Shown here: piece after piece, positions 1-29,497 of the stretch
Position numbering within the stretch: the stretch's first letter is position 1
Layout of the letters: each line of letters starts with the position of its first letter
From: Macrostomum lignano
Taxonomy: Eukaryota
Reading direction: 5' to 3'
NCBI GenBank assembly: GCA_002269645.1
Contig: NIVC01000796.1
Span: 1 to 29,497 of the forward strand
DNA: 29,497 bases
Program-made: the position numbers and the translations under genes
The notes under the pieces: model-generated
Seen by the model: only the letters and a program-made list of their open reading frames with translations
What the model was told of the DNA's origin: nothing
The model's database searches: none

Positions 1-2
1 CT

Positions 3-113
3 GCTGCTGCTGCTGCTGCTGGATCAGCTGCGCGCGTCGTCGCCAAAGAGGAGGCGCAGAAAGCTGAACATTTGCGGAAATGTATGGATATGAATGTGGC
101 ACTTTATCCTTAA
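3..113 (+). other. Possible 3' end of an ORF entering from the left (AAAAAAGSAARVVAKEEAQKAEHLRKCMDMNVALYP*)
   Basis: Open frame from the window edge with poly-Ala, ending TAA at 111-113. No domain recognised. Confidence 0.25.
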
Positions 114-1032
114 GTTAAAGTTAAGTTAAGTTAAGTCAAAGGCTCTAATGTTCGCGCCTGCTAAAGCCGCAGAAATTATGTGGATTATACGAGTTGTTGG
201 TTGCTTGCAGCGGGCGGGGTACAGAAATGCTGGACCTCTTTAAGAATGAACAGTGGCGATGGTGAGGGGGGGAACGGTCTGGGTCTAGAGTCTGCGATCG
301 ATGCATAGTCTATGGTTTAAACCCCCCCCTACTAAAACAGTACACTGAGTGTGTCTAACGAAGTAGAGAAGAGGGACGGTCCGGGGTCTATAGTCTATGG
401 TTAACCCCCCCCCCTAAAAGCAGCACGCTAGCTGAGTGAGTCTACAACGAAGTATTGAATCGATACTCAAAGTATACAGTTTAGTAGTTCCAAAAGGTGG
501 TTTTCAAAAGGAGATGTAGATTGCTTGTTTCATATATTTCAAAAAGAGGGTGTCGAAAATCGCAACGAGATTAATACTTACTACCGCCGGTATTGAGACT
601 GTAAAATTGTATATACGCGGCACATTAGCCACAACAAAACTGCAGACAACAACAATATTGCAATATAGAAACCCACGAGAATGGAAATGCCCCAAAAATA
701 CCCCTTTAAGTATGAAACAAGACGAACTGGTGCTATTCCTTCCTTTAAAAGCGATAACTAAAAAACACACAAAAACAAAGGGAAAGTATAACTGTTACAG
801 CTACTAATCGCCTCTGCATGGCTTGGATGTGCCATTTATCTTTTTATGGGAATGTTGCTAAGCACAATTTCGCGATAGTGCTACTGTGCCAACACGCCTT
901 ACGGAAATGTATGAAAATGAATGTAGCACTTTTCCGATGTTTTGTCTGGCACTTTATCCTTAGTTACAGTAGCGTTAAGGCTCTAATGCTCGCGCCTGCT
1001 AAAGCAGCAAAAGGTGCACATAAAGCTGCAGA
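75..1032 (+). repeat. Degenerate direct repeat pair, about 75-175 and about 902-1032
   Basis: Both contain CGGAAATGTATG..ATGAATGT.GCACT..TTATCCTTA...AAGGCTCTAATG.TCGCGCCTGCTAAAGC. Confidence 0.8.
275..465 (+). repeat. Two degenerate tandem units of about 90 bp containing ATAGTCTATGGTT and a poly-C tract
   Basis: ATAGTCTATGGTT(T)AA(A)CCCCCCC...CTGAGTG.GTCTA..ACGAAGTA occurs twice. Confidence 0.7.
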
Positions 1033-1353
1033 ATAGTTGAATTTTTACTGTCCCTGCAGTGGCTCGTATAATAGCTGTAACACGAAATTGTTGGAACTTG
1101 AACGGCCAAATGTGAACTTTGTTGCGTTGCTGACGCACGAGTAATATTACCTAGCTTTGTGTTTACCTGCGTTCTACGGCGCATCCTGCACTATGTGAGC
1201 AGCCTAGCAACAACAACAAAATCCACTACTAATGCATATAAGGCCGGCTTGATTGCTAGGAGGGGAATCGGGATTTGGGAATATTTAAGGGCAGGGAAAG
1301 CAGTGCGTCATCGTTTATCTGCCCCGTTGTTCATCAATCCAGCTAATCAAGCT

Positions 1354-3811
1354 CTAATCAGACTCTGCGCGAGCATCATCCTGCAGCTGGCAGCCGGTGC
1401 ACCGGAATATGTCGTGCTTCACGTGAATACACTGGCCGCCGGAGTTGACCCGCCTGACAAAGTCTATGGGCAGATCGGCGGGAGGGACATGGCCAGCGAG
1501 CATCACCGGGCCGCTCCATTCAGTCAGAATGAGGGCCTTGTGCTTGGCGTTGATGGTAAATTTATCGCGATTGAGCAGCAGAAGCAGCTGCTGCGAGGAG
1601 GCCTGCGAGACGCTTAGCTCATCAAAGAACAGACACCTATGAATGCCCAGGCGCAGACCGTCGAAGGCAAAACCCTCGTCAAGGTTCGGAGTGAATACGG
1701 TCTCACGACCAAAATGCAGGCCCACCATTGCTGATTTGCCCACTCCACTGGCACCCCATAGGTACAGGATTGAGGGCACAACTACAGTCTGCCGCATCGC
1801 TGTGCAGATTGCCTGCTGAATCGCGCAGCTTCCACCTAGCGCGATGCGGTGTGTTGCCACATTGCTGCACCCCGGCTGATCCGTATTTGAAGCGGCTGTG
1901 TCGCCGCGTGGAGGCACCTGCATGCATTGTACAGGCAGAGGGTGACATGCCCCGCACATACTCGGCCAGACAATGGTGCTGGGGAGCAGTGACACGCCGT
2001 GCTCTTCGGCACGAATTCTGCGCATCTGTTGCACCGTTGTAAAGTAATCCATGGTCTGCTTCAAAAGCAGTGGATTACCGCAGACGAGATGGGGGTCGTC
2101 TGGTCGCGGTGCCATACTCCCCAGCGGATATGACATAGCCCATCTGTACAGTTGGACAACGCGGGACAGACAAGCGTCGTCGATTTCGGTGATGGCGGCT
2201 GTGGGGTCGTGCATGGTCACCCGTCATATTTCGGCAGCTGCTGAGCGCACGCTCCTGATCTCGGCGCATGTCCATCCCTGCACCGCAAAGGTGTGCAGGC
2301 TGGAGCCAGACGCGAAGAAGGAATTGTGCATGGCATTGGATCGCAAAAATATCAACAGCGATCGTGTCTTGTCCACAGGGCAAGATGGAGTCGGGGCGTA
2401 CGCGTCAGTCATGTGCGCGGGAGTCAGCATAAATTCGTTATCTGCCAGGCCTTATTACATACAGTAGTAGTAGTTGTTGTTTGTTGTGGTGGCGTTGGGG
2501 GATGGGTTAAAGAGTTTCTTAAAATCGCATGTTCTACGTAGAAGATAATTGTTATGAGTTTTTCAGACACTTGTGAAACGACGCAAACACTCACTCACTC
2601 ACCTATGGCAAACTGTGTCGCGAAGTCGCCGCTCCAGGTGCCGTTGATCATCAGCTTCATCTGGGGCGCGTTCTTGACGTAGTACAGCTGAATCACCGAC
2701 ATTGCACGATGCGAACGCCGGCTCGCATTAGCCGAAAACATTATGTCGTTTGGTATGGTGTCGCTGGGATGCAGCGACACGGACGATGCCAGAAGGCGCG
2801 AGCTCGTTCCCTTCGGCGAGGTGCTAGCCGGCTGCTGCTGCCGTTCCTCCCCCTCTTCGTGGAACAGTGGGATCTCGCCGGCCGGGCAGGTCGTCTCTGC
2901 GAGGTTATATTTAGCTGTCGCCTCCATCTCCCTGGCCGCCAGCTCGTAGCCAGAGGCCAAAGCCCGCTCGCGCTGCGTAGCACTCGACTGCGGTACGGCT
3001 GCGGCGGTGGCTCCTGTGTCGTCGGGAAACAACAATGTGAAAATGATACTACTGTAATATGAGAGAATGTAGCATGAGCAAAAGTGTGAGCGCGAAATGC
3101 ACGTAACCTACCTCTCGGGTAGAACGTCGTCGGCGGGCGGCTCGACCGAGGTCTCGGTGAGGCTGTCGGCGTCATGAATCGGAAGGCAGCAGTAGGAGCA
3201 GCAGGGCGAGTGGTGAAGCGCCAGGGCGCGCCGATGCCGCACGGGCCGATCCTAGGCTGCCGTAGAAGGTGCGGCTTCGGTGACGCTTGAGCAGCAGCGG
3301 CAGCAGAGTCAGTAGTATGGAATGAGGGCGACGCCTTCGGAATAAACTGCAGAGTCGGCGGCTGGTCGCCGCAGCCGGCGACGTGGTCAGCAGGATGCTG
3401 CTGCTGTTCGTCGTCGCTACCGCTGCTGTAGACAATTAATCGCGGCAGCTTGTTAAGCAAGCCGCGCTGCTGGCTTGGTTCCGGCGTCTCATTGGCTATG
3501 ATGCGCCGAGAGGGCGTTGCGCTGCTCGTCTGCGGCGTGCTGACATCTTCTAATAGCATCCGCCGGCGACTGGGTTGCTGCTCCTCATGAAAAGTAGTAA
3601 CAGCAGCGGCAGTTTCCAACTCCTTCTCATGACAAGTAGCAACAGCAGCGGCAGCTTCCAACTCCTCCTCATGACAAGTAGCAACAGCAGCGGCAGCTTC
3701 CATCTGCAGTTGCTCCGCCTGCCGCTCTTCAGCAGCAACTTGTTCTTCGAGCTCGAGCTGCTCTTCCACACTTAACATTATCTCGTCGTCGTCGTCGTCG
3801 AACATGCTCAC
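1354..3811 (-). pseudogene. Spliced gene: acidic low-complexity N-terminus plus CRESS-Rep-like superfamily 3 helicase (disrupted)
   Basis: C-terminal part has Walker A LYLWGASGVGKS (about 1732-1770), FAFDG (WxDGY-like), Walker B CLFFDE, B' LLLLLNRDKFTINAK, motif-C-like PVMLAGH and Arg-finger-like DFVRRV. Two frame-restoring introns: 3111-3052 (GTAGGT..TTACAG, 60 bp) and 2602-2442 (GTGAGT..CAG, 161 bp). One in-frame TGA at 2226-2224 and a frame discontinuity near 3250. TATATAAA on the minus strand about 100 nt upstream of the ATG. Confidence 0.8.
3585..3710 (-). repeat. Three tandem 42-bp (14-aa) coding repeats in the helicase-gene N-terminus
   Basis: AAAAVATCHEEELE / AAAAVATCHEKELE / TAAAVTTFHEEQQ. 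Confidence 0.85.
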
Positions 3812-3909
3812 GATGCTGCTGCTGGAACTGTGTGAGACGATGCGCTATTCTTCTGCGATCTAACCATAAAGACTGCTGCTCTGCTTCTACTAGAAGGGGG
3901 AAGCTTAAG

Positions 3910-3987
3910 TTTATATACATTAACCTATAAACTTAATGTATATTAATACATTATTTATACATTAATACATTGTATATTAATGTATAA
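3910..3987 (-). promoter_or_regulatory. TATA box and AT-rich hairpin upstream of the helicase gene
   Basis: Minus-strand TATATAAA at about 3917-3910. Perfect 13-bp arms TTATACATTAATA / TATTAATGTATAA (3955-3987) with a 7-nt loop. Confidence 0.5.
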
Positions 3988-4030
3988 CTAAAGACTAGTT
4001 ATAGTCCCTAATATGAAATGCGCTATCCCA

Positions 4031-6850
4031 TTAACCATGAGCTGACGGATGGCCCAAATTCGGGTCATGGCTCAACACCCAAAGCCAACGGGGAATTTTT
4101 TTATATCTATGGCCAAAAAACCAGCAAAATTAGCACACCCGTTCTGGACTGATGTGGCCCGAAATCGGGTCAAGTAGTGGCCAATAAGATAGTGAAAACG
4201 CACTTAGAAAAGATAGACTGTAACAAAACAAAGTAATTTCAATTACTCATATATTTTTCTTCTGTTTAAAAGTTAACGACTTAAATTATATTAGAACATA
4301 GTGAAGTGGGGTCATTTTTTTAACTGGAGTGGTCAAAAATGGAGGGAAGCTGTCACAATTGTCACGCTGTCACGTCATTTTCTGTAGAGTTGATTTTAGA
4401 AAACTTTTAGAAAACTGGAAAGAAACAGGTAATACAAAACAACAAGCATCTAAATTTATTATAACTCCAAATTAATACGGAATAATGTAATTTCTATCCA
4501 CGATAATGCAACAAATATATTATTTTATTTCAAGGGGCCTTGGTGCTAGGACTGAGGTCTAGGAGCTGAGAGACCGGGTCCCTGGATTGATTGCGAATCC
4601 TCGCCATCTCTAACACCCCCTGCCTCCCCCGTCTCTGCGCCTGCGGTTATCACTGTGCGAATCCGCCCCTTCCTATTGTAATTCCCTCACCTCTACCCCT
4701 GTGCTCATGACCCTACCCTCTTCTACTGTTTTCTGATTCCTACGTCTCATATTAGTAGTTTCTGTAACCAGGACAATTTCTGGACTATCTGTAACCAGGG
4801 GCTGTGGTGGCACCAATTCAAAATGAAGTCAAAATAGAAAGGCAAATTTGCGGAAAGGGTGGATACTACAATATTTTCTATACTGTCTAATACACATCGC
4901 CAGGCGTCAGACCTAATTGGTTTGAAATTGCATGAAGCAAGCACCAAGGCAGAGTGCTGGCGTTCCCGGGCAAGCTTCGCATACAAACACTGTCTTCTTC
5001 ACTTGGCCAGCCGCATAGCATACTCGGCATCGTTTGCGTGGCCGAGCCTGGTCCCTGTGTCTGGGAGCTTTGCTTGGAGAATGAGCAGCAGCTCCATTGC
5101 CTACAGCACCGGCAGCTGCTCCATCTGGCATTCGACCGCGTCGCCTGGCAACACCAGTGTCCTCCAACAGATATTTGACTGCGAGCCTTATAAACTGCAA
5201 GAAGGTCTTTGTGCCGCCCGATTGCTTGAAGATGACCCAGGCATTTCTCACAAGCATCAGGAAAAGGTGGAACCCAAGCTTGTGGAACCAGCGCATGCTC
5301 TTACGATTGGCTAGGTAAGGGTGCATTGAAGCGTCCAGATGGTCAACACCACCCATGCTGGCACAGTATGCTAACACACTTACAGGCTTCGGCACCACCT
5401 GCACGGCACCTCCACGACGGGTACGATGGACCTGGATGCAATAAGCTTTTCCTGCTGTATCTAGCAGATACACAGTTTTTATGCCGCTCTGCTTCCTGTC
5501 GACAAATTTGCAAGCCAGTAGGTTCCCTGAGCGAGCGAATGCAGATGAACTCGGATGTAGGTTGGCAGCTTGCAGTTCAGCTGGGATACCGCGGTTTTTC
5601 CGTACTGTTCCGGTTAGCAGCGTATCATGCTGCAACAGCCAAGTAGCCAGCCGCTGAGACTTAAACCAACTGTCGGTCAAGACGTGGTGTCCAAGATTAA
5701 GCAAACTGCGGCACAGTTCTGCAACAACCTTCTCACTCATCGTCAAGTCCTGACACCCGAGGCCTTCACCGAACTGATTATTGACCTCAGGGAATGTGTG
5801 GACGACGAAGTTCCATAAGTACGCACTCTCACTCTCACAGATACAATACATTTTAATTCCGTATTTACTTTTCTTTGTTGGAATGTACTGTTTAAAAGCA
5901 ACTCTGCCCTTGTACAAAACGAGTGTCTCATCAACCGACAGTCACTGCCGTGGCATGTAATTGTTGCTGCACAGATGCTTTACGCTGTGCAGAAAGGGCT
6001 CCATCTTTGCCAGAGGGCCATCTCCTAAAGCCTCAGCGCAGTTGTAAAAACGCAGGCAGGACAGCAGCTGCTTGAAGCGGTCTCTTGAGAGCGAGAATGG
6101 CTTGGCCAGAAGGGAGCAATGAAACGCTGGATCGGTTGACCAGTAGTTGGCGATTTCCGGCTTCTTGTCGACACCCATCAAAAGCACGATTCCAACTAAC
6201 GAACTTCATCCGTCGTTGAGTCCCGCCATTTCAACACTTGCTTCGGCAGTGCAGCCTCTGTTTCGGCTTCTTGAAAGATTCTCCAAGCCTTAGCATTAGT
6301 CCAATTGCTGAGGTCTTCGAACAACTGGTCTGAAAAAAAAGCTTTAGGAAAGCATCTTCGTTTCCATCAGCAGTTGGTGGAGGCTGCCAGTCTGGTCGGA
6401 TGCCAGGTGTTCCGAGAAAATCGGGTAGGGCTGATGGCCTGTTGTCCTCATTCGGTTGAACCATGTGCCACCCACCGGCTTGCTCGTTGTTCTCAGCGAT
6501 GTCCATCTCATCGTCCTCAGACCATTCGAAAGTTTCATCAGCGGTGGAATACTGACTCGACGAAGTATCAGAGTCGAAACTGGCGTCTGAATCTATGTAT
6601 GTATATTTGCTTGAAACAGAAAATCTCTGTGCAAACTCTACGCGCAGGCAGTCAATAAGTATAAGTGAAGTCTATGTAGAAACTCTGTGGTACTTTAGAA
6701 ACTTTTCCCGGCGGGAATGGGTGTGAGCATTACAAGAAAAAATTCTAAGAAAAAATAAGAATAGAAAAAATTTGTCAATAAACTTGCCCCGCTGTTGTAA
6801 ATTCGGGCATACACAGTGTATATTTGGGCAGTCGTAGACTGTACATTGTA
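4031..6850 (-). mobile_element. piggyBac DNA transposon (decayed; right end uncertain)
   Basis: TTAA-CC start at 4031. Subterminal GGCCC(A/G)AA(A/T)TCGGGTCA repeats near 4050 and 4156, and a related motif near 6800. Contains the transposase pseudogene. No clean matching TIR plus TTAA found at the right end. Confidence 0.7.
4913..6590 (-). pseudogene. piggyBac (PGBD-type) DDD transposase pseudogene
   Basis: YWSTDP, SRDRFKQLLSCLRF, LSVDE (D1), YIPTKKSKYGIK, TDSWF (D2), MGGVDHLD (D3), C-terminal Cys-rich CRVC..CEAC..LC..CF. Broken by a frameshift near 6340 and in-frame stops near 6200 and 5942. Confidence 0.95.
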
Positions 6851-7359: not shown

Positions 7360-7419
7360 AGGCAGATAAGAAATTGTGCTTGGCACCGGAGGTGCCAAGC
7401 AGCAATTTCAAATCTGCCT
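7360..7419. repeat. 60-nt hairpin
   Basis: AGGCAGAT-aag-AAATTGTGCTTGGCACC-gga-GGTGCCAAGCA(g)CAATTT-caa-ATCTGCCT. Confidence 0.9.
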
Positions 7420-7768
7420 GTGGTAATTAAGTACACACTAGCTATAGAGCGTAAAAACAGCAAGAATCGGGGACTGGCAGCTATTTATGGCCAATAGATT
7501 GTAGCTATACAATCAGTCAATAGCTGATAGCCTGTGTGGATAATAGGCGTAGGGGTATATGATGCTGAACGCGGATGTTACAACAAAATAAATAGCCAAC
7601 TATCTAGACAAAGAGGGAGCAAACACAACCTGCACCACGCGTAGTGCAACCACCACAGTGTCACATCGAGCGTGCAATGAAACATAGGGAGAGAAACAGC
7701 AACGACACATACATAAAAGGAGACGGCTTCCAAAGGTCAGACACATGCCTGTCGCAAAAAGTCGCTTA

Positions 7769-9326
7769 TTAGACAGAGGCCGACACGCGGCACAATTTAG
7801 GTTTCTTACTGCCGTTGCGTCTGGCTTTGCAGCCGGACGTCGCCGCCGCCGCATCGGACCAGTCGAACTCCGCCGCAGCCGCCGCCGCTGCACTGGACAG
7901 CAACAAGGAGCGCGTGGCGTCCACAGCAGCCCGCCGTTTCGACGCGAGTTGCGGCACTGCAACCACCTCCGAATGCCGCTGCTGTTGCTGCCGCTTCTGC
8001 GACATTGGCTGCTGCCGCTGCTGAGTCGGCAGCTCCTGCGAGACCCGAGCGGCGATCAGCTCCCGCTGCTGCTGCTGCTGCTGCTTCTGGGACGTTGATG
8101 CTGCCCGCTGCTCAATCATTCCGCTGACGGTGACCTGCATTTCTGTACGACTGGCGAGCACAGCGTTCGGTGCGTAGTGTCGCATAATCATGGTTGTCGA
8201 AGTCTCATACAGCGCCGCCATCTGCTGTATTAGATCAGGGTTGTTCGCCATGACGACGTCCTGCGTCGAGCTGCGGAACACAGTTGGCCCGACGCCTTCC
8301 CGATGTAGGATGCCAGCTGCTCCGGATTCCACAGCGTGGCTGAATGTCGACGGAGACATACGCGTGCCATTGCGGGTGCAAAATACAAAGACCTCGTCAT
8401 CATAGGCGCAGTTGCCGAAGCTCGCGCCTCGACGCCACTTGCGGAGCATCTCGACAAAAGAAGTTGGCAGACAGAGCACGCTGCAACCGACAGACTGGCG
8501 TTTCTTGTGGCAAAGCCTATCATTGTCCCGCCTATAGATGCTGTTTGGCTCCAAATAGGCCAGGCGAAGGCCGCACCATGGCTGGATGCGCAGAGGATGT
8601 TGTACCGTGGCATGCAGCGCAAACCGATTGCGCAGCTGGACCTCCTCAGCGTTAAGGCGGACACCGCCGCTGCCGCTCAGCGCCGCGACAGTTTCGTCAT
8701 CGTCTTCGTCATCTTCGTCAACCTCGATATCGCCAGACTCGTCGCCGTCACCGCCGCCGCCGCCGCCGCCGCCGCCGCTGCTGCCGCCGCCGCCGCTACA
8801 TCGGCACAACCGATGGGTTAGCAGCAGCGGACTCCAGCCGTTGACGCTTCGGCTGCAGCGCTGTCGGGGCACTGGTGAAGGCCTCCTCGTCGGCGAAGAG
8901 TTCCAGCTTGATAGTAGCCGCGACCGAGCTTCCTTCGTTGAACGAGTCATCTTCATCACTGCTGGAAGGCACCACGACGTTTGACACCTTCGTGATGACG
9001 CATTCATCGTCCGCGGCTGCGTTCGATTCGGCCTGGGTCGCTGGCGCGAGCACGACAGGTAGCACTTCCGGCGCCGCCGTAGCAGCCGCCTCAGCAGCGC
9101 TGCAGGCAGCCAGAAGTTCCGCGTCGAAGAAGACGTCTTCTTCGTCATCGTTAGCCGTTGGCTGGTTTGATTCGGTGGCGGCAAGATCGGCTGCAGTCGC
9201 CATCAGGTCGGCATCTTCAGCTGCATAGGCAGCTTCGAAGGCCGCATCGATTTCCGCATCGGTCAAGGGGTACCACACGACCGAGTTGTTGCTGTTGTTG
9301 CTGTTTTTGTTGTTGCTATAGCTCAT
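7769..9326 (-). pseudogene. Tyrosine-recombinase-like gene, copy 1 (acidic N-terminus plus catalytic domain; frameshift near 8800)
   Basis: HPLR (Arg), HKK (Lys), PTVFRSS (Arg) and MRHY (Tyr nucleophile) appear in YR order and spacing. The acidic N-terminal ORF 9326-8796 is in a different frame. Clear paralog at 27911-28906. Confidence 0.7.
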
Positions 9327-9904
9327 AGTTGCGTTAAAAGCAAATTAATTCTTTTAAATTCGAGTGCTGCAGTTTGCTGGAAAGGAGGCAGGATAATTAC
9401 ACTAAGAATTATTAAGCAGCACTAAGCTTTACTTTTAAAATATACAAGTTGTAGAAACAGTAACTAGATACTTATATGCATACGAGTTTTTTTACTTATT
9501 GAAGTTGGCCAATAGATTATTGCAGCGGGCGGGATGCTGTGCGTTTCACCCCGTTTCAACACGCCTAGGCTAACTATAATATTTGATATATTGCGATACG
9601 GCAGATAGTTTGGGCCCTAGACAAACCTACTGGAGCAATTGGAGATTTTAAAGCTATTAGTCCTATTTGTCTATCGCCGGTCGGCGAATCCTACCAAGCT
9701 TTCTTCAATAGTCGCAGATACGGTACAAGAAAATGAATAACACGGTTGAATGCAATTCCAGATAGATTTAGATTGAGTGGTGTTCCTAATCTGACAGAAT
9801 GACTGACAGAGACTTGAATTGAATCCTTTAATTTAATTAACTCCAAATATACACGGATTGAAATAACGCAATTCGCAATTTAACACTTGACAAATGATGT
9901 ATAT

Positions 9905-10038: not shown

Positions 10039-10254
10039 CGTACTTAATCTACAAATATTGGAAGCGACTGGGAGTGGGAGAGAGGTATTCGTCAAAAGCG
10101 GGGGTGTGGGCCCCCCACATTTAACCATAGACAAAAATTAAAGTAAAAGGTTCGATGCTTAAATTAAAAGCGAGAAAGGAAAGGTTTGGGCAGCTAGAGG
10201 AAATCAGAGAGAACTGAGAATCATGGAACGCGACTTGGAACTCGCTTTCGACTG

Positions 10255-10545
10255 GTGAATGACATTGAACTGAGAGAAAACGAGGCTTCTAGATTTGCTT
10301 TACTGTCCGATAACGAGGTTGCTGAAAGGATTGACGCTGCTGTGCCGGAATCGACACGCCGGAAGGAACGATGGGCACTAAAGCAATTTGACGACTGGTT
10401 TCAGGAGAGGCAAACCAAACTGCTTCATGGAGACGCCTGCGGTCTATCTGTGTCTACCTATCGGCCGGCATACTCTCGACTCCAATTGTGGCGAATATCA
10501 CCAAACCCGTGTCTACGGATGGTAAATTCTCAAACCAGTCTCTAA
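10255..10545 (+). pseudogene. Crypton-like (KCTD1/ZMYM-related YR) N-terminal fragment
   Basis: RFALLSDNEVAERIDAAVPESTRRKERWALKQFDDW resembles the Crypton core-binding N-terminus. Catalytic domain absent. Confidence 0.65.
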
Positions 10546-12821: not shown

Positions 12822-13787
12822 AAATTCTCATGTTTGAACAGCCAACGCTCTGGGCCGCTTCAAACAGTGATCGGCTCGGTATTGGTCAGCAGGTTTTGTT
12901 AAGCTCTGTCAGGCTCTTTCGGCTGTTTTGCTGTGCAAATGCCTGATGTGGTCGAGTTACACGGACCATCATTAGAAGATTCTAGTGCAGCTGCATGGCT
13001 AAGCTGTTTAAATTTTCATTGGTCAACTGCGTTTTGCAGTAGATTGCAGACGCTGAAATTGCAGGATACATTTATCGTCGGATTGAACTCTCACTGTATT
13101 GTAAGTAATGTGATGCACATACAACTGATAATAGTACGACTAAAGTAATAAAAAGACTATTTAAGTAAAACTGTAGCTAAAATATGCAGAATGTATGACT
13201 ACATAGGTTATAAGGGCAGATGGCACCGTTGGCGACGGTTAAGTAGTTTAAAAATGCAAGCAATTTAAAGATTGATGTGTACTGTTGTAACATACAGTAA
13301 TATTATTGTGCATTGTGTCTATGAAATTGCACTCAATGCGTATTATTCCTATGGCGAATACCTGCTGCTCCTTTTATGTTGCGTGTTTTGCTATTATGCT
13401 TTGTAAGCAGGAGTGGGTGCATAGGAGCTGAAGAGATACAAGACAGAACATGGCCCCTGTAGCATAAAGTGTATCTGTTGTGGATCCAATTTAAAAAAAA
13501 TTGATATACGCGCCATGACCCTTTAATATACGCGCTAGTGTACCTACTACTGAGACTACCAATATTAAAACGATAAGAAATAAATGAAAGCTAAACGCAG
13601 CAGAAAAGGTAAATTTGTAACTTTACTTGCGCCAACTGCACAGGATTTTCACGATAATATGAAGGAGGGGAACAGCATTTACTTAAAAAAGATACCCTCC
13701 TCCTTTTTCAACCGGGCTTGGGACTGGCTTTGGCTTTTACCCATCCACCTCGTATTCTGTATCAACTGTTCTAGACTTGATCGAAGC

Positions 13788-14027
13788 TTTATTACCCCTC
13801 GCATTAAAGATTGGCCCGCGTAGTCAAATAAAAGTGACTACTCTCATCATGGCGGGACTTTATTATTACCCCTCGGATTAAAGATTGGCCGCGTAGTCAA
13901 ATAAAAGTGACTACTCTCATCATGGCGGGACTTTATTATTACCCCTCGGACTAAAGTTTGACCCGCGTAGTCAAATAAAAGTGAATATTCTATCAAAGCG
14001 AGGCTTTATTACCCTGCGGATTAAGTA
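13788..14027 (+). repeat. Tandem repeat, unit about 73 bp, just over 3 copies
   Basis: ATTACCCCTCG.A.TAAAG.TTG.CC(C)GCGTAGTCAAATAAAAGTGA units start at 13791, 13865, 13938 and 14008. Confidence 0.95.
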
Positions 14028-15579
14028 TTGCACATTCTTTTGAATTTTTGCCCCTCTTTTAACTTGGAAGTTCCATTCACTTTAGACAACCCATGAGCAT
14101 GCCCAGACTTGCATGCCCAGACTGAAGACTAGATAGCGTCTGCCTTAATAGGATAATCTGTGTTTAACTCACTGGGCCTGCTGGAACATAATTGGAACTA
14201 TGCTACAGATTTCGGCTAAGACACCCAGCTGTACAAAACAATATACATAGTTTGTGTCTTGGCCTAATGACCGACGGACGGGATGGGGAGCGGGTCCTCC
14301 CGCCGGAGACACCCAAGGTCCCAGCCCCAACCCTGGCTATGCCTACGCGACCCTGACCGACCCGGCGAGATTTCGCCCTGGCCGATCACCCTGGGACTAG
14401 CGAGAGTTCGCCGACCTCAGGTTCCTACTCAATCCCACCGGCCCCTCGCGGCAACCCAGAAGAAAGAAGCGCGAGCTCACTCCTAGTCATCGATTTAACA
14501 GCTTGACGAAGCGTATATTTGGCCGACCAAACGCAGAGCAGCACAAACAGCAACGGACGCAGAACGCAGACAAACAGACAAACAGTGGGGCGCAGAACGC
14601 GGAAAACAGTGGAGCGCAGAACAGACAAGCAGTAGAGCGCAAATCGCAGACAAGCAGTGAAGTGCCGAATGGGCAGGGCGAGAACTTAAATAGAATACTG
14701 TACACCAGAGGGGGGTAGAAAGGAGAGGGGCAGGCCAAACCCTGGGGCTTAAGGCAGCTTATCAGCCCGCCAGTCAATGCGAGAGGCCCAGGGTGGGGCG
14801 GAGCAAAGAGGGAGGGGTAGGGCAAGCGCACAGATTGGAAAGGGGACTGGGCGCAGAAAAGACTAGGCCATGGTAGAAGCTTACGCCTCATAAACCCCGG
14901 CAAGGGCGCGAGACGGTGGACGGGGCGGCGCAGCATGAAAACACGAAAACAAAAACAAGGGGCAACAGAAGGGCAGGGTAGACTGAAAGGGCGCTGCACA
15001 AGAATAGGATGCTTCAGAAGTAATTAGAATAGTCTGAGTGCAACACATCCAAAAGGCATCCTCATTTGTTGTATGGTACAGTACACAGACTACATGCTAA
15101 CGGGAGTCAAACCTTTGTACACAATAATGCAACTACCTTGCACTAAATGCAAATTAGTAGAGTATACAAAGGATGGTTGCGACCTCACATTACGAGCAAT
15201 ACAGTTTCAACAAGTCCTTTATTTAATGCAGAGGTTTAGCGCCACTGACTAGGTGGATTCCAGGGATAGCTTGCCGGGGTAGCTTGTTATGTCATTAAGT
15301 ATGACAGCCTTCCATCGGAAGCACTCTTATTTTATCCCTAACTTTCGAATCTTGTCTTGTCATGATTCGGACCTTGTTATTTGGTAAAATTCGGATTGCT
15401 CACCAGATTAGAGTCAAACCAGATAACATTAAAATTACCTGGTAACGAATCTGGTGGTTTTACCAGTTTCGCACCCTAAACAAGCATTGGAAGTATAGTG
15501 AATCTGACAAGATTCGCAAATTATCTTGTGGTGTTATCTGGTTTATTTTCCAGAGGGAGTGAGCTAGCTACCGGTTAGG

Positions 15580-15630: not shown

Positions 15631-15849
15631 TTGGCACCTCGTCTACGTCGCGGAGGGTAGCCGCTTCATCTGGGGGCGGTCAAAGAGCGCCAAAACTCGG
15701 ACACAACGTCGAACGAGCGAGTTTTTTGTATTTACACTCTAAAGAATCTCGCTCAAAGCGATCATCCACCAAGCCGCGGGAGCGCCCTGCTCATCAACGC
15801 AAGCGGAACTCTACGTGGTCAAGCTGGCCTAAATTGGCTCGAAGGGCGC

Positions 15850-16440
15850 ACCAGCAAAGGAGAAAGCACCGTGATCATTAGCGACAGTCAGAGCACTCTA
15901 CAGGCTATTAAGGGCTTGAGCAGAAACACCTTGGCCATTAGAGTCAGGAAAATGCTGAGGAAGCTGGAGGAGGAAGAGAAGGTGGTTAAGCTAATCTGGG
16001 TGCCCGCGCATTGCGGCTTGACAGGAAACGAGTTGGCGGATGAAGCAGCGAAAGAGGCATCAACCTGGGCCCAGGAAGGCATCAAAGTGCCACCCAGCAG
16101 CAACAGGAAGTACAGCCAGAGCAAGCTGGGCAGAGATAACGGCAGAAGCCACAGGAGAAGCAGGGAAACCTATGGAGAGCAGGGGGCGGAGCCCCAGCCG
16201 AAGGGCCTGAGCAAGCAGGAAGCGTTTGACTTCAGACGATTCAGGAGTGGCCACTCTATGGACCTAGCAGAGTACAGGAAGCGCATAGGTAGACAAGAGG
16301 AGGGCTGGTGTACGAGCTGCGGCTTGGAGACCGAGACGCTTGAGCATGTCATGGCGTGCCCCGTCACGCGCAGCCTTAGGGAGGAACTGGACCTGCATGA
16401 GATTCGAGTCTTGAGTAGGAGACCAGGGAATCTGCAGCGT
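15850..16440 (+). mobile_element. Non-LTR retrotransposon 3' fragment: RNase H plus C-terminal zinc knuckle
   Basis: IISDSQSTLQAI and LIWVPAHCGLTGNELADEAAK (RNase H); RFRSGH...CTSCGLETETLEHVMACP (CCHC). Confidence 0.9.
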
Positions 16441-17665
16441 CAGAAACAGCACCTCAAAGATTGGGCACCACGCTTAAAAAGGCCCTTTTCCGAGCACAAT
16501 CTCCCTGGCGTCGATACAGACGAAAACATCGCACCTGTATCCATCGACCTGAACTGTCCGTGACAATGTATCGGCTTCAAACTTGTCTTGACACTTTCTG
16601 AACAAGGAAGGGGACATCCGAATCGAGAAGACAATTGCAATTTTGCATGTTCGAATCATATTAAATTCAAGTGGAAGCAAAAATCATTTCGTAATACTCA
16701 CATACCAGGTACTGATGTTGTAATACGATAACAACAGCTTAATTACTTCCAGCGCAGAACTATTAGCTTATTTTCCCGTAGTCTAACCAGGCTTGTATCG
16801 ATAGAATCCAGGACAAGAATCTTTCGTCGCTTAGCACACACAACGATAAGATAAAAGTGCTCCTTGTGTAAAAAAGGATTTAATGTCTTATTCAAGCCCT
16901 GGGAAATATACAGTGAACTAGAAAATTACGAGCTAAAAACAACTTTGCATTTGAGAAATGCTAGAGTTACTACGAATTTACTTTTACATACATGTTACAA
17001 GAAAAAGCAATTATTCGTACCTTATACACTAAAGTCCTTTTCGACAAAATTTTCCTCTTAAAAGTAATATTGTTATTATTGATATCCAAAATGCTGTGAA
17101 AGTCTCCCTTGCCAATGACAAATTCGTTGGTGCGCCTGAAGTAAGTGCTGTGCAGTAAGCCGGTAATATCTACACCTTTTTCCATTCTATTTTGGCAAAC
17201 GTGCAATCAAAGTCAAAATCTTTTCATTCAATTCAGACAGTTTATGGTAGTTCTTGGCCGGACGTGCATTCAATTCCGACAAATGTGCTTTCAAAAGCGA
17301 CAATTTTCAAACAAAGCAAACAAGCTACCACGAGAAACCGACACTTTGCAATCAATTCAAACAATTTGCAATCCATTCCGACAGTTGGCTATGAATTGGC
17401 TTTTTTCTGTCCTCCTATCTATGGCTCATACTAATACGCTCGTAATGCCGAATGCAAAAGTGAGTGACAACGATCGGCAGAGGCTCATCGACGCACACGC
17501 AAACGGAGACGATTTTGGGCATCTTGCTCGAGTATGTACTCCAGTGGCTTGTCTAAATAGATTGAAATTTGTCGGAATTGATTGGAAATTTCGCAGTATG
17601 AGCCATAGATAGGAGGACAGAAAAAGCCAATTCATAGCCACTGTCGGAATGGATTGCAAATTGTT

Positions 17666-18530
17666 CCCTTTTGTCTATGGTTTCCGGCATTCATACTTGC
17701 GGTAACAATTTAATTGTTTGTCGGCTTTTTTCGATTGTTGCCGGATTTCAGACGAATGTATTTGGCTATCAAAACAAGGAACAACAATAGCAACACGGCG
17801 AAAGTGCTTTCGAAGGGATGAATAGAAAAGCCTCAGATAATCGTTCAAAAATCGATCCGGAACACGCTCAAACTCCTGGCAGAGCCCCTTCTCGTTGAGG
17901 AACTGTCGGAACCTTGCCACGTGAAGCTTCCGTTGCGTCTCGGTCGATTTCGGCACTGAGTCACTCTCAAGTCGGTCCAACATTTCCAGATCTTCGCTAC
18001 CTAGCTCAGGCAGCCCGTTGGAACTGGACGACGCATCCAGGTTGTCCATCTCCAGAACGTAGCGCGTGCTCGACTCTCGGGTGACAAAAGCCAACTCGTC
18101 CGTGGAGAGTCCACATATTTCTCCGCCAGGAATGTTTGCGTAGCGAATCATAGCTACTTTTCCTATTTGCACTCCGAATAGGAGAATTAATTCAAGCTCA
18201 AAATCAACTTGAGAATTAACTCATGGCAGCCAGGCTAGCTGTCTTCACTGTCCTTTAAATTTGCCATAAACGATTAATTATCTCTACAACCCTTTCATTT
18301 AGAGAGCAACTAAATTTGCCATTGACGATTGATTATCTCTACAACCCTTTCAAAGCGCATTCCGGCAACAATCGCATTTCATACTCAGCATCCGCACTAT
18401 GTCTGGGCCATAGACAAGGGAAGTCAAAAGGGTACAATAATGACATGTACCGATTTTTTTCGGCAGCAATTGCGCGCTTCAGCTTACGCAATTGCTGCCG
18501 AAAAAAATCGGTATATATCGTTACATTGTT
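17666..18530 (-). mobile_element. Non-autonomous Crypton-like insertion, 865 bp
   Basis: Flanked by a direct ATTGTT. Encodes DSVPKSTETQRKLHVARFRQFLNEKGLCQEFERVPDRFLNDYLRLFYSSLRK (Crypton/KCTD1-like N-terminus). Inverted CCCTT(TT)GTCTATGG / CCATAGACAAGGG at 17666 and 18408-18420. Confidence 0.75.
18448..18513. repeat. Perfect hairpin: 27-bp arms, 12-nt loop
   Basis: TACCGATTTTTTTCGGCAGCAATTGCG-cgcttcagctta-CGCAATTGCTGCCGAAAAAAATCGGTA. Confidence 0.95.
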
Positions 18531-18907
18531 TGAATTGATCGCAAAGTGTCGGTTTTTCGTGGCAGCTTGTTTGCTTGTTTGAAAATTTTCTAGTTTGAAA
18601 ACTAGACGGAGTGGCCGAGGGCGGCTATAGGCTGCAGTTAGGCAGACGATGGAGCGGCGATGCGCTGAAGCGGCGAGGCGCTGGTGTCGTTCAGGCATTG
18701 CTGATGATGATTGGCGGTAACAGACCGCGGACCGGCAGACGAGCTCACTTGGGGAGCTGAGATAACTTGGCGGTAACAGACCGCAGACCGGCAGAGGTTC
18801 GTCTTATAGACGAATAGGTCAGAGCAACGTCTGACAGCAAGTCCACAATAGGACGCTTGAGAAGAAGCGCGAAAAGGTTTGAGGATTCTCATGCCGAAAA
18901 CCGCTTC

Positions 18908-20500: not shown

Positions 20501-21479
20501 TCCAGGATGTCGTCGTCGTTCGGGACTCGTTCTACATAATGAAGCACTAGCGTGGTCGCCAAATATAAATGCCCACGTCTCAGTTTGAAATAATGAAGTC
20601 GTGCAGACACCAGGCAGTTACTTGTTGGCTGAACTCATTGGTCGAAAGGAGAGAAAACCCTTAAAGATTCTGGCTCAAACCATTACTGTATTTATAGTGA
20701 TTGGCGATGATTCCAGATTACGTGCGATAGCTTAAAAGCGTAATTCACGTGCAGGACTAAAACCGATTCGAGCATCTAAGCGAGTCGGGGAAACGAGGCC
20801 CGGAGGGAAATTTGAGGCCTGTGTGACTTTTAGTGTGAGCTTGTGTGAGCTTTTCTGTGTGAGCTTTTAAGCAGGGAAAAGATCACACACAAAAGCTCCC
20901 ACAAATGGTGAAAACGCTCGCACAATGCAACGATCTCTACAGATCTCGGAGATTTAGGTGTAAAATTTTCACCCCACCTACTGACAGTAGGCTACTAAGT
21001 GGATGTAACGTCCCGTTTATATAGTTAGTAGCATATGCACCTGATTTTGACTTTATAGTTTTGCAATTGAATGTCCATGCAATTGCACGCTATGGCGTAG
21101 TACTGCAATTGTGGTTACGATTAGAAGCCACAGCTTCCTCTAACGAAGAGAGAGACTAATATATATGTAGATACACAGCATTTCTATTCGACTGGAATAC
21201 AGCAGTCAGATGCAGAAGGAAGCAGTGCGTTTTACAATGTAATTAAACAGAATGCAATGCGATCGAAGTTGCAAAAAGCGCGAAAGAAGGCAGCTGCAAA
21301 ATGTACGGATAAAGGCTTTGCCAGCCAGTCGCCTCGCGTACTCGCAGCCTTGCCACACCGTGCACGCTGCAGCGTTGATCTTGTTGGCAGTCGTAATCCA
21401 ATGCTGCGTGACATCTTGGGCTGTAATGCAGCAGCCCAGTGGCAAGACGCAGAGATGCCTGAGGCCAGACAGTATACGT

Positions 21480-21591
21480 ACCTCTCACGACTCTTAATTG
21501 GAAACTTGTGGAAGCGAAGTCCTGGTACATTTCTATCCGCATATGATCTGCATCCGTACGATGCGCACTGCAGACGTGGCGCTGTCGGCAT
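21480..21591 (-). pseudogene. THAP zinc-finger N-terminal fragment
   Basis: MPTAPRLQCASYGCRSYADRNVPGLRFHKFP matches the THAP C-x4-C...FHxFP start. The remainder is broken. Confidence 0.65.
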
Positions 21592-24145
21592 GACGACCCG
21601 AGAAGACGAGAAGCTACCAGAAACAGTTGATTTATTGCAGCTGCAGTAGTGGAAATTAGATAAAACCAAGAAGCGTATGGAACGCAACAGTATTGCGGAG
21701 GCAGCCGATGAGAAATAACAAATGGTTGAAGACAAGATCCATCCAAATAGTAATGAGTTGAAGGAATATATGAGAGTATAGGAATGCAATGTTTAAGCCA
21801 TTGACAAAATAGTGGTGATAATCGCGATAATCGGTGATCATCGCAGGAGTTGCATGTCATGAATACATTTTTGCCACGTTTTTTTATGCAGAGGGGTCGA
21901 TTGAGCATTCTGGTGTATTCTGTAGTCTCAACCGCCTCAGCTGGAGGTTCCGTCGCAGCGGCCGCAGCAGTCGCTGCAGCCTCAGCCGGACGCTCCGTCG
22001 CAGCAGTCGGAGGAGTCGTCGCAGCCGGAACCGTAATATGTGCTGCATGTCCCGGCACATGTCGAGAACACGTGCCACGTTCTCAGCTCCTGTCTCCATG
22101 GACGCAAACTGCCTGCTGATCTGGGCATGAAACTCCGCTGCCTCCCGGTCCCGATCGGCGAGTTCCGCATGCAGCTATTGACATCGCATGCATGGCATTG
22201 GGATATGGGCAGCGTCTTGGCAGTGCTCGTCTGAGCCGGTCGAGCAACCAGACTGCGAAACTTCTTAAAGCTGGTTGAGAGCGACAGTGCTAGTGCCTTG
22301 TTGTCCACGGCGTCCGTTAAGACGGAGGCACGCTGCACACGGTTTCTTCCACTGAAACGCCTGCCTCCCTGCCGTAACAGAGGTTACTCGGAAGAGACGC
22401 TTCGCTGTCTTCATTGAACACCGCCAGCTGTTGTCGACCAGCTACAGCAATCTCCTGCGGCGTTGTACTATTATCATACATTACGACATACCAGGAGCCA
22501 CAGTCTGCAACCAGATGACGGCAGATATGTAATAAAATGCACCTGTCGGAAAGCGTATGATATGTCGTCTGAGTAACATCTGGCATTTGATTACCGGCGT
22601 TCGCCATTGGCAGGGAATGCAGCGCGTGCGATCTGCAAAAGCATTAATGCAGTAAGTCTGTATAGCAGCCAGCCACAGTGGCCACAGGTACATGTATTCA
22701 CATTTTTAGTACGGACAAAGAAATTAGGCATTACTAAAGAATTGATTTCTGGCATAAGTTTTTTTTTCTAATTTACATAATTTATGTTTTATTGAAGCTT
22801 TAATGAAGCTGAAATTCTTCATTTCCATTGGCTTCAATTTGAAATTGTACAGTTTTAGTTAGCTTTCTTGGGCATTTGGTATACTTAATAGAAAAAGTAT
22901 ATTTATTAGAAAGTGAAATTCTAATAGCATTTTTCAAGCTAGTAGAAAGTGCGAGCATGGAACTAAATACACCATTTTACCCTCGATTTTGAACAAGAAC
23001 TTCAAAACCGACAAACCCCTCTTCAATATTGACACTCTATGGTCGGGCACTCAAAATCTACAATCGATATTGACAGATGAAGCTTTAATTTTGACAAACT
23101 CTGGTTCAATTTTGACGATGCACTTTTAGTCATCTTCTGGGAGAATTGTGAATTCAGTAATAAAGTAATCCAATGAAAGCCTGAACAGGGCTGAATTATC
23201 TGGGCAAAATCAGCTCATTCTGACTTTGCTTTTGGGATCTACAAGTATTGATAAAATTGCATGACACGCGAAAAATAACTATCCCCATTTTTTCGACACT
23301 ATTTCGGCTAAAAATCATTAAAACATAAAACTAAAAGACCTATAGGCCATATGAAAAAATGAGAAACTGCTCCAACTCAAGCATTTACTCGGGCCTGTAT
23401 GAATAAACTGAGAAATTTTTCTCAAGAGAATTCGCTCAGATTTCAGAGCAATTACTCAGGTCAATAAGAATAAAACTACTACCATAGACTAAATTTCTGA
23501 GCAATTTAATGAGATTCCTCATTAAATTCATTCCTCATTCCTCATTCCTCATAAATTTGATGAGGACGCACTTTTTTCCAAACCCGCGCTAGCACATGGG
23601 CTCTAAACTTACTAGCCTACTAACAGTGGGCAATGGGCATTTTTATCCTTTTTCTGCGATTTGTCGTATAATCTATAGTAGATATAATGTTTGGTCATAC
23701 TAGTAGTCGTAATAACATAGGCGCAGCTTTTTGGGTCATAAATCATCGCTCTCGAAGCTGGTTTGACAGCCACCTGCGCCTCACTCAGTGTTGAGGCGGG
23801 CGCCAGATGTCTGAGGGGATGCGAATGATAGCTTTTTTCTCATCATTTTTGACAGGCCATCAGATTTATGAGGTCAGAGCCTATTGTTCGGGTTCACTGA
23901 AGCGTGTGACAGTTTTGACAGCTATGCGTTTTACCCCTAAAAGTACTTTGGGATTAGCGATTAGCGATTTCTCTTCATTATCTTCACTTCTCTATTTAAT
24001 AAGAGCTTTCTAATGAATATTTTTTCATTCATTTTTTTCAATTCTACGCGAAAAGTCATAAATCATTTTGTTGCGATTTTGAGTGATTTATGGCCGCACC
24101 TGTCATGTTTTTTACGACCCTGTGGGAACTGATAGGATCTCCCGG

Positions 24146-27910: not shown

Positions 27911-29157
27911 CTAACTGATTGTCGTCTTCTTCCTCTTCGTTTGTTGTTGCTGCTGCAGCAGGGAGCGACTGGCCTCGGTAGCCGCTTTGCGCTTCGATTG
28001 GCGTCGCTGACGCTCCATCTGTGTTACTGGTTGTGATAGAACGCCCATCGACATGATCCCCGACGACGATTCTTTGTCTCGACTCTCGAGCAGTGAAGGT
28101 GATACTGTCGCCGGGGCGGATGCTCGCTGAAGGTTTGGCTGACGATGCTCGCTGAAGTACCAGCTTGCGACGGTGGCTTGAACGACCGTCCGATTGTTCA
28201 GCATGGCGTTGGCCGCGTAGTGGCGCATCAACATTGGCACAGAGGTTTCAAATAGCGCCGCTGACTGATCAACCAACTCCGGCCGCCCGCCAGCCACAAT
28301 GTCCTGCTTGGAGCTCCGAAAAATATTCGGGCAGACGCCGGAACGACCGAGTATAGCTTTGGCATGATCGACAACCGCCTGGCTGAAGGTGGAAACGGAC
28401 ATCCGCTCACCTCGGTTGGTGCACAGCACAAACGGCGAGTTGGCGACGCCGACCATGTCGTTGCAATGACGGCCGTTTCGCCAGGTGAGCAGCAGCTTAA
28501 TGAATGCGGTCGGCACTGTGAGAACGCTGCAGCCGACAGACTTTATTTTCTTATGGCTGACCTGGCGACCAGGCAGCCGGATGGTCGAATAGCCGTTGTC
28601 ATGATTGTCGCGCCGACTGGCGCTACCCGGCCGGATGTGCGCTATGCGGAGACCGCGCCATGGCCGGACGCGCAGCGGATGCATCGCAGTGGCATGCAGA
28701 GCAAATCGATTGCGCATCTTAACAAAGCTGTCCTCGTCGGCTGGACCAGAGGCGACCAGTGCGGCGTAGTCGTCCAGGATGGTGCGCCACTCTACCGGGG
28801 TTAACAGCTTCTCTTTCTTTCTGTCGTGGTGCAGCGGCGCATCCAGCCTATACTCAAGGTCGTGCGCTGGCGAATAGTTTTGAGCCGCTACTGAAACAGC
28901 TTGCACCTGTTTTCCAGCTCGGCTGCAATGTCGGCCGGCAGTTGCATGCGCTCCACGAGCGATTGAAGATGCGCGCGGTCGTGCTCAACGTAGGCTAGCA
29001 TGTACTGCATGCATTTTATTAGCGCTTGCGCCCTGTTTCTAACTGTGCCGGAGCTATTGCTGGTGGCTCGAACCTCCGTTGCGGCGGTCGTTGGGTTGGC
29101 TAAGCAATAGACTAAATCTCGCGGCTCGACGACTGGACAGCTCTTGTCGGCGGCGCC

Positions 29158-29190
<33 letters not shown>

Positions 29191-29497
29191 CATCTTTGAG
29201 CAGACCGACAAGATCAGCAAAAAGGTGTCAATGAGAGCGTCAAGATGGCCGTCATAGGCTGGGTTGCGCACGCCTGTTGCATCGTTCCAATACAATGACT
29301 GGATTACACGCAGCTGCTTTATCAGCGGAGCATCGGCCGAATACTGCGCCAATAGCGAGGAATGCGCAGTGTAATCACAGCAAGGCATCACCCGCCGCGA
29401 TCGCCTCCTTGGCTGACATGGTCGTCGTCTTTGTCGTCGTCTCCGCTGCACCGCCGACGCTGACTGCCGCAGTCGAAGACGCGCTTGTCGCCGCCGT
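27911..29497 (-). pseudogene. Tyrosine-recombinase-like gene, copy 2 (core-binding plus catalytic region; frameshifted; 5' end beyond the window)
   Basis: HPLRVRPW, HKK, PNIFRSS and MRHY. The upstream frame SSGTVRNRAQALIKCMQY resembles a core-binding helix. A 1-nt frameshift near 28905 (AAC AGG TG) and another near 29385. Confidence 0.75.

Follow-up and report, generated by a model that had tools for sequence, protein, structure and literature searches.

A two-gene, Crypton-like element of Macrostomum lignano pairs a divergent recombinase-like gene with a Rep-like helicase gene lacking nicking motifs

We analyzed a stretch of 29,497 nucleotides from Macrostomum lignano (contig NIVC01000796.1, positions 1 to 29,497 of the forward strand; hereafter, the window), taken from assembly GCA_002269645.1 (764 Mb, 5,269 contigs). 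On its minus strand, the window carries a Rep-like gene in three exons (3805-3112, 3013-2603, and 2450-1354), whose product would join a HUH-like domain devoid of nicking motifs to an SF3 helicase. This gene belongs to an element of ~8 kb whose second long gene encodes a recombinase. The gene structure, the linkage of the two genes, selection, and the mobility of the two-gene unit were all observed. We consider it probable that this Crypton-like element is excised as a circle by its recombinase, copied by the host with the dead Rep acting as an origin-binding helicase, and then re-integrated.

The genome contains 36 matches to the family, at 39 to 100% identity, several of them with open frames. 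In order to place the N-terminal region, we compared a profile of seven genomic sequences with a set of four HUH-intact proteins (P0010 to P0012 and P0015, whole Reps with HUH and YxTK, of which P0015 reaches the Pfam Gemini_AL1 cutoff). The two profiles aligned over 105 columns with an hhalign E value of 8.6e-7 and a score of 48, versus at most 17.5 in 30 column shuffles, which supports the homology to the Rep HUH nuclease domain proposed in an initial annotation of this DNA. At the position of HUH motif II (2353 to 2361, minus strand), the window reads S-L-L, and at the position of motif III, YxxK (2206 to 2226, minus strand), it reads stop-R-V-T-M-H-D. Aligned to K-Y-I-T-K-E-D, the Tyr lies opposite R (2223) and the Lys opposite M (2214). 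Hence, the annotation was right that neither HUH nor YxxK is present, and RVTMHD occupies exactly the place where it had expected YxTKED. The motif I equivalent, near 2702-2673, lacks the Thr of UUTU, in a register given by global alignment and lying outside the local hhalign match.

Motif II and YxxK were absent from all seven aligned genomic relatives, which represent five subfamilies and range down to 23% identity, and the losses of His and Tyr are thus conserved among open paralogs, a point on which the annotation had made its proposal depend. The H-x-H position reads S-L-L, S-I-L, S-I-H, S-V-L, T-L-S, and, twice, G-V-T in these seven sequences, and the motif III position in the same alignment reads R-R-V-T-M-H-D, R-R-I-T-A-L-D, R-R-V-T-L-N-D, R-S-L-T-Q-H-D, or G/V-S-V-T-R-H-D. 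P0005, which comes from another source, likewise has neither the Tyr nor the Lys of motif III. Over these eight dead sequences, the first His of motif II was never found and the second was found twice (C957 subfamily and P0005), whereas the Tyr and Lys of motif III were replaced in all eight, with R, S, or W at the Tyr position. Between the window and the C1024 copy, dN/dS was 0.16 in the HUH-like part (dN 0.222, dS 1.38) and 0.10 in the SF3 part (0.161 and 1.68), values obtained by simple counting with synonymous sites near saturation. Since open relatives lack the motifs and dN/dS is ~0.16, the motif loss is family-wide and not a matter of decay. Judged by these substitution ratios, the HUH-like domain is under purifying selection while its catalytic residues are not kept, in agreement with the suggestion of a nuclease-dead Rep retained as a helicase.

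Two other accounts of the motif loss bear on these data. We find it hardly credible that the loss is the decay of one dead copy or that the gene is a domesticated host gene: the window copy does have a stop and a deletion relative to its paralogs (see below), but open paralogs are without the same residues, dN/dS is low, and copies occur at unrelated sites with sharp ends. It is also very improbable that the N-terminal domain still cuts DNA via other residues, which would make the element a rolling-circle replicon. The C957 subfamily and P0005 retain the second His, and a Tyr and a His lie nearby (YRW and MHD); nevertheless, none of the eight dead sequences has Tyr at the catalytic position, most have lost the second His, and YRW is no substitute for motif III, because the HUH-intact Reps have YRW beside their own YxxK.

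All of the helicase features reported by the annotation were found in the sequence. The SF3 motifs span 1447 to 1755 on the minus strand and comprise Walker A (GASGVGKS, 1755-1732), Walker B (LFFDE, 1632-1618), B′ (1587-1537), a motif C-like VMLAGH (1506-1489) with His where the HUH-intact relatives carry Asn, and the Arg finger FVRRV (1461-1447), in addition to FAFDG at 1671-1657. We modeled the last exon of an open paralog with 70% identity (predicted local distance difference test score [pLDDT], 74). With Foldseek, this model matched the SF3 helicases bovine papillomavirus E1 (E 2e-6) and adeno-associated virus Rep; by structural score, it matched simian virus 40 (SV40) large T (Z 11.7) and porcine circovirus 2 Rep (Z 11.1), and its nearest matches in BFVD were unclassified viral Reps. 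According to the model, the SF3 helicase of the Rep-like gene is real, and it would be expected to have ATPase and unwinding activity. Separately, the dead-Rep group retains a CxxC, an extra Cys ahead of the helicase, and a C-terminal CxGC, none of which occurs in the HUH-intact group; the Cys residues of the linker and the C terminus possibly form a zinc site.

The Rep-like gene model starts at ATG 3805 and has 733 codons, with a premature stop at codon 444 due to an in-frame TGA (2226-2224) that interrupts exon 3. The window copy is also without 9 residues that the paralogs have. Among the eight copies in which the motif was found, the TGA of the window recurred only in its two near-identical duplicates, and two paralog gene models without interruption contain 746 and 808 codons. 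Judged by the premature TGA, the gene in the window is a pseudogene. Exon 1 (3112 to 3805) encodes an acidic, low-complexity N terminus, and its donor position, which is without read support, is common to copies C491, C1024, and C957. By profile alignment, the HUH-like domain begins with a strand and a helix encoded by the 3′ part of exon 2 (2603 to 3013); exon 3 (1354 to 2450) would encode the remainder of this catalytically dead domain, the oligomerization helices, the Cys-bearing linker, and the SF3 helicase.

Intron 1 (3014 to 3111; 98 nt, GT..AG) is predicted from the frame and from paralogs. Its acceptor at 3014 is the only one of those tested that keeps the frame open up to the TGA, and two paralogs have introns of 123 and 151 nt at this position with acceptors in frame. 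Intron 2 (2451 to 2602; 152 nt, GTGAGT..AAG) has the same position in C1024, C957, and C3789b. A contig from run X6, presumed to be RNA, skips precisely the 152 bases 2451-2602 (depth, 3.1, with the shorter side covering 38 letters), and the paralogs have the G-L-A-D/E-N-E-F that this splicing makes. Splice support was sought in 4 of the 24 listed sequencing runs, and reads supported intron 2 but not intron 1; run X1, which may be DNA, covers both introns unspliced. Consequently, the donors given in the annotation (3111 and 2602) stand, whereas its acceptors (3052 and 2442) have to be corrected to 3014 and to the 2451-2602 junction. An acceptor at 3052 (or 3049) was ruled out because the frame closes at about codon 342, with 18 stops, and an acceptor at 2442 because the X6 junction sits 9 bases away; the RNA evidence that the annotation had looked to thus backs one of the two junctions, at a shifted acceptor. 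Its reading of the introns as a sign of long nuclear residence is not supported, since intron-interrupted Reps occur in free CRESS viruses (PMC6186406) and the Rep gene of the active Replitron-1 has two introns (PMC10288648). In one subfamily, the intron of the HUH-like domain lies ~20 codons earlier (C150:330557-330637, versus 2602-2451 in the window), and it is absent in another, differences that read as independent gains or losses.

Flanks were examined for 28 of the 36 helicase matches, and 19 of these 28 loci had recombinase-like sequence within ~10 kb (18 loci by tblastn and 1 by eye), as would follow from the partnering with a tyrosine recombinase that had been suggested. The window contains two recombinase genes, each from another copy of the family; the region as a whole has three element copies arranged head to tail on the minus strand. 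One of the two genes is represented by its C-terminal part (7769 to 8677, minus strand); the other, which is frameshifted (27911 to 29497, minus strand), comes from the third copy, whose Rep-like partner lies past the window end and is seen in a duplicate at C3789:92717-91653. The partner of the window's own Rep gene lies past the window start, as seen at C2956:74634-81123 and C3789:60013-53536 (interrupted).

A model of the recombinase (mean pLDDT, 65; 70 to 90 in the catalytic part) matched XerH (Z 10.5, root mean square deviation 4.2, 166 residues aligned), XerA (Z 10.2), and Cre (Z 9.0). Ranks 1 to 26 of 48,161 chains were recombinases, integrases, topoisomerase IB, or relatives, the family being our assumption for some chains and taken from the title for others. 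The motifs HPLRV, HK, FRSS, and RHY are kept in three deep subfamilies, and across subfamilies R, K, R, and Y are retained in the order expected; from the motif order, we take these to be the catalytic residues. On the strength of the model, the partner gene encodes a divergent tyrosine recombinase fold that would be active as a recombinase. A PDB sequence search with the recombinase profile returned a single match (E 1.1), a tblastn comparison with phage gave E values of 6 to 9 at best, and a Crypton-like frame of the same genome (C283) had no tblastn match to the recombinase genes of the element.

The element was delimited by comparing copies. C957:80449-88537 and C1267:166988-158754 share 98% identity over 8.2 kb and have unrelated flanks, and a third copy, C2240, has a left end in common with both. 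The C957 copy sits in a common repeat, nine of nine empty copies of which read through with a single GC; GC was present at both ends of the filled C957 site and likewise at both ends of the C1267 copy, for which no empty site was found. Since copies 97 to 100% identical occupy different sites, the family has moved recently. The ends carry short inverted subterminal repeats, with no long terminal repeats and no reverse transcriptase. Among frames of at least 110 codons, the bounded 8.1-kb element contained no third long gene, and no capsid gene was seen. The same two genes, convergently arranged, make up ~7.9 kb in a distant subfamily; in a third subfamily, the N-terminal domain is intron-free and the gene order is unstable. 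An end-to-end element junction was not present in the assembly, where its absence is uninformative. The repeat that hosts the C957 copy (C957:80300-80450) occurs on several contigs in inverted pairs ~11 to 16 kb apart, like terminal repeats, and a nearby frame (C957:93354-92296) is presumably Polinton-like.

Palindromes mark the noncoding parts of the element. In the clade of the window copy, a conserved palindrome of ~40 bp downstream of the recombinase gene (7360 to 7420) is a candidate origin or protein-binding site: its pattern was found at five loci in the whole genome, each of them downstream of one of these recombinase genes, against none in the control, and its folding z scores were -8 to -11. 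Shorter copies of AATTGTGC cluster in noncoding parts, with 89 occurrences versus ~21 expected in 611 kb of sequence that is partly duplicated; one, at 862, lies in the spacer between the Rep-like gene and the recombinase gene of the element (1 to 1353, minus strand). The left noncoding part (3806 to 4034, minus strand) is common to C491 up to the TTAA at 4031-4034 and contains, upstream of the gene, an AT-rich palindromic insertion of ~82 bp (3917-3999; fold z, -6.3) that is absent from C491. We did not find the true left end of the window copy.

In the mechanism that we favor, the tyrosine recombinase would excise the element as a double-stranded circle, by analogy with the Crypton model, in which a circular intermediate has been proposed (PMC3212892). 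The dead Rep, unable to nick, would bind the AATTGTGC palindromes and unwind them for host polymerases, leading to theta-type copying like that driven by papillomavirus E1 and SV40 large T, where an inactivated HUH domain is the origin-binding module ahead of the SF3 helicase (PMC6668415, PMC13595969). The circle would then re-integrate through a short core, as in Cryptons. The loss of nicking would fit such a cycle, because the recombinase would supply the breaks for integration and a double-stranded circle can be copied without a nick.

Several observations weigh against this mechanism, in which circle formation and replication are steps that we infer. The HUH fold of the N-terminal domain rests on profile similarity, and it was not among the fold-search matches of the model, which consists of the last exon and is without exon 2. 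All genomic subfamilies have His for Asn in motif C, and helicase activity may be altered because of this change. The recombinase model has a low mean pLDDT, its best Foldseek match was Tre/Cre at E 5.6e-3 with none at E ≤ 0.001, the His of HxxR is absent, and no Pfam match was obtained at E ≤ 1. The C2240 left end is without GC, gene order and orientation differ between two loci of the most distant subfamily, and the AATTGTGC palindromes are absent from two distant subfamilies. The copy number is low for a self-amplifying element, and many family loci are segmental duplicates and not independent insertions. Finally, 9 of the 28 helicase loci had no recombinase match nearby, some of them being truncated or at contig ends, and at least nine recombinase loci had no helicase match in the examined flanks; these unpaired loci fit truncation and equally an optional passenger.

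The main rival, which we judge unlikely while taking it seriously, draws on the same observations. It holds that the element is a Crypton-like transposon whose circle is not replicated and whose dead Rep is an accessory or passenger serving excision, end synapsis, or regulation. The recombinase loci without a helicase, the low copy number, and the motif C change would all suit a passenger, and additional genes, for instance one for a peptidase, are known from Cryptons (PMC3212892). The trees speak on both sides. The helicase and recombinase trees conflict inside the clade of the window copy, and the differing shallower splits suggest module exchange; however, the helicase tree's deepest split, with support of 85/90 and 90/91, recurs in the recombinase tree (100/100), and the pairing is kept across it. 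Also at odds with a passenger are the purifying selection on both Rep domains across subfamilies at saturated synonymous distance and the retention of Walker A and B, B′, and the Arg finger.

Turning to relatives outside the assembly, a search of 1.84 billion representative proteins gave 15 matches. The protein P0001 belongs to this family and matches the C1938 copy, and four of the 15 (P0010 to P0012 and P0015) match in the helicase, at E 2e-5 to 1e-3. Among relatives with intact motifs, those nearest in sequence are unnamed Reps of 368 to 443 amino acids. In a midpoint-rooted helicase tree built without named reference sequences, the genomic copies and seven outside fragments stood apart from the HUH-intact group with support of 100/100. 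P0002 to P0008 and P0013, which are fragments from other assemblies of metagenomes and runs, fall with the dead-Rep family, and a look-alike cluster in the Atlas (rank 2) is mostly eukaryotic, with Rotifera the commonest. No Rep or recombinase match at curated cutoffs was found in Pfam and PHROGs for the window proteins or their paralogs; word-indexed protein searches yielded 0 of 6,431, 0 of 7,999, and 1 of 7,991 candidates, the one being a member of the query; and no relative was found among metagenome contigs (queries P0002 and A5) or among viral contigs (queries P0012 and A5).

This last result is relevant to the idea that the element is an endogenous small DNA virus, or a satellite, with a capsid gene that has gone unrecognized, has been lost, or is provided by a helper, which we consider improbable. 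The nearest structural and feature matches are viral Reps, one copy lies inside a repeat found in inverted pairs, and Polinton-like viruses join SF3 helicases with tyrosine recombinases (10.64898/2026.06.19.733378), but the bounded 8.1-kb element has just two long genes, and the ~7.9 kb of the distant subfamily likewise comprise these two.

Within the genome, C3789 has a near-identical counterpart of the entire window, and C2956 has counterparts of parts of it. We rejected C2956/C3789 and C1938/C51/C1789 as independent insertions, as they are long duplicates. The most distant subfamily (C2362, C267, C157, and C2367) adjoins long arrays of short tandem repeats.

The remainder of the window contains other features. 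A piggyBac-type element with a broken transposase frame (4031 to ~6700, minus strand; Pfam DDE_Tnp_1_7, E 3.6e-37) is inserted at TTAA in the left part of the two-gene element, to which it does not belong; run X1 shows a loose end at 4031, and the upper end was not found. An acidic open reading frame (ORF) of 176 codons (8796-9344, minus strand; ATG 9326) overlaps the start of the partial recombinase frame and has no Pfam match; we dropped it as a deleted exon 1 fused to the recombinase, for exon 1 of the Rep-like genes gave no BLAST match with it. Crypton-like related frames occur near several element copies. The frames at 10198-10545 (plus strand) and 17675-18220 (minus strand), neither with a Pfam match, and the frame at C283:523248-524372 are presumably pieces of the CryptonA/DUF3504 kind, and we take 21232-21792 (minus strand), also without a Pfam match, to resemble a THAP zinc finger. 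The window further contains an RNase H fragment of a LINE-like element (15661-16563, plus strand; Pfam E 8.8e-7), tandem repeats of 73 to 74 bp (13782-14030), and nested inverted repeats around a Crypton-like frame (17289-18600).

Compared with known systems, the element resembles in its initiator papillomavirus E1 and polyomavirus large T (Papovaviricetes), which likewise combine an inactivated HUH domain with SF3 (PMC6668415, PMC13595969), were the top structural matches of the helicase model, and have in common with it a long low-complexity N terminus. Unlike the Papovaviricetes, with their circular encapsidated genome and L1/VP1, the element is integrated, has its own recombinase, and shows no capsid gene. 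The dead domain can still be aligned to HUH-intact CRESS-type Reps, which points to a loss separate from that of papovaviruses, on a tree that contains no papovavirus sequence. CRESS-DNA virus Reps and pCRESS integrative plasmids have the same Rep-oligomerization-SF3 layout; the element differs from CRESS Reps in the loss of motifs II and III, its spliced three-exon gene, its location in an animal nuclear genome, its recombinase partner, and the lack of a visible capsid gene.

Cryptons are similar in having a recombinase, no long terminal repeats, a very short direct repeat at the ends, and a proposed circle, and the right end of one element subfamily contains TATGG, as in most CryptonS elements (PMC3212892). 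They differ in a direct repeat of 4 to 6 bp, versus the 2-bp GC in two complete copies of the element, which in addition has a Rep-like helicase gene; the word "helicase" does not occur in the main text of that source. An N-terminal Cys/His-rich piece and the absence of a Pfam match also set the element apart from Cryptons, in a comparison made without Crypton protein sets. Replitrons and Helitrons are likewise eukaryotic transposons with a Rep domain, and Replitron-1 has two introns and short direct repeats (PMC10288648), but they need an active HUH/HUQ and a catalytic Tyr, both of which are missing from the Rep of the element. Moreover, Replitrons have no helicase, Helitrons have an SF1 helicase, and neither is described with a recombinase in that source. 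Polinton-like viruses bring the same two enzyme classes together on one integrated element (10.64898/2026.06.19.733378, 10.64898/2026.10.13.758929); as described there, they are larger, have capsid and packaging genes, and mostly have SF3 fused to PolA or primase.

Overall, the element lies outside active CRESS Reps, Replitrons, Helitrons, and Papovaviricetes, and it may be viewed as a Crypton joined to a papovavirus-type initiator, with the features of Cryptons present only in part. Our literature search, which did not extend to Repbase, subscription journals, or supplements (for example, the Crypton list of PMC3212892), found no description of such an element. Tentatively, and with somewhat less confidence than in the mechanism itself, we propose a new class of capsid-less, self-replicating nuclear integrative plasmids that would have acquired an E1/large-T-like initiator by a second, independent HUH inactivation, were recently active, and have relatives in other eukaryotes (P0002 to P0008); the element would constitute such a class if the circle is indeed replicated. 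To our knowledge, no means of raising copy number has been described for the eukaryotic DNA transposons that use tyrosine recombinases. If our interpretation is correct, the recombinase transposons would gain a member that replicates, and the element would be a second case of the switch from a nicking Rep to an origin-binding helicase, known from papilloma- and polyomaviruses. Because its HUH-intact relatives can still be aligned, the steps of this switch are open to study, and with near-identical copies present at unrelated sites in an animal kept in the laboratory, the formation of circles, expression, and binding can be tested.

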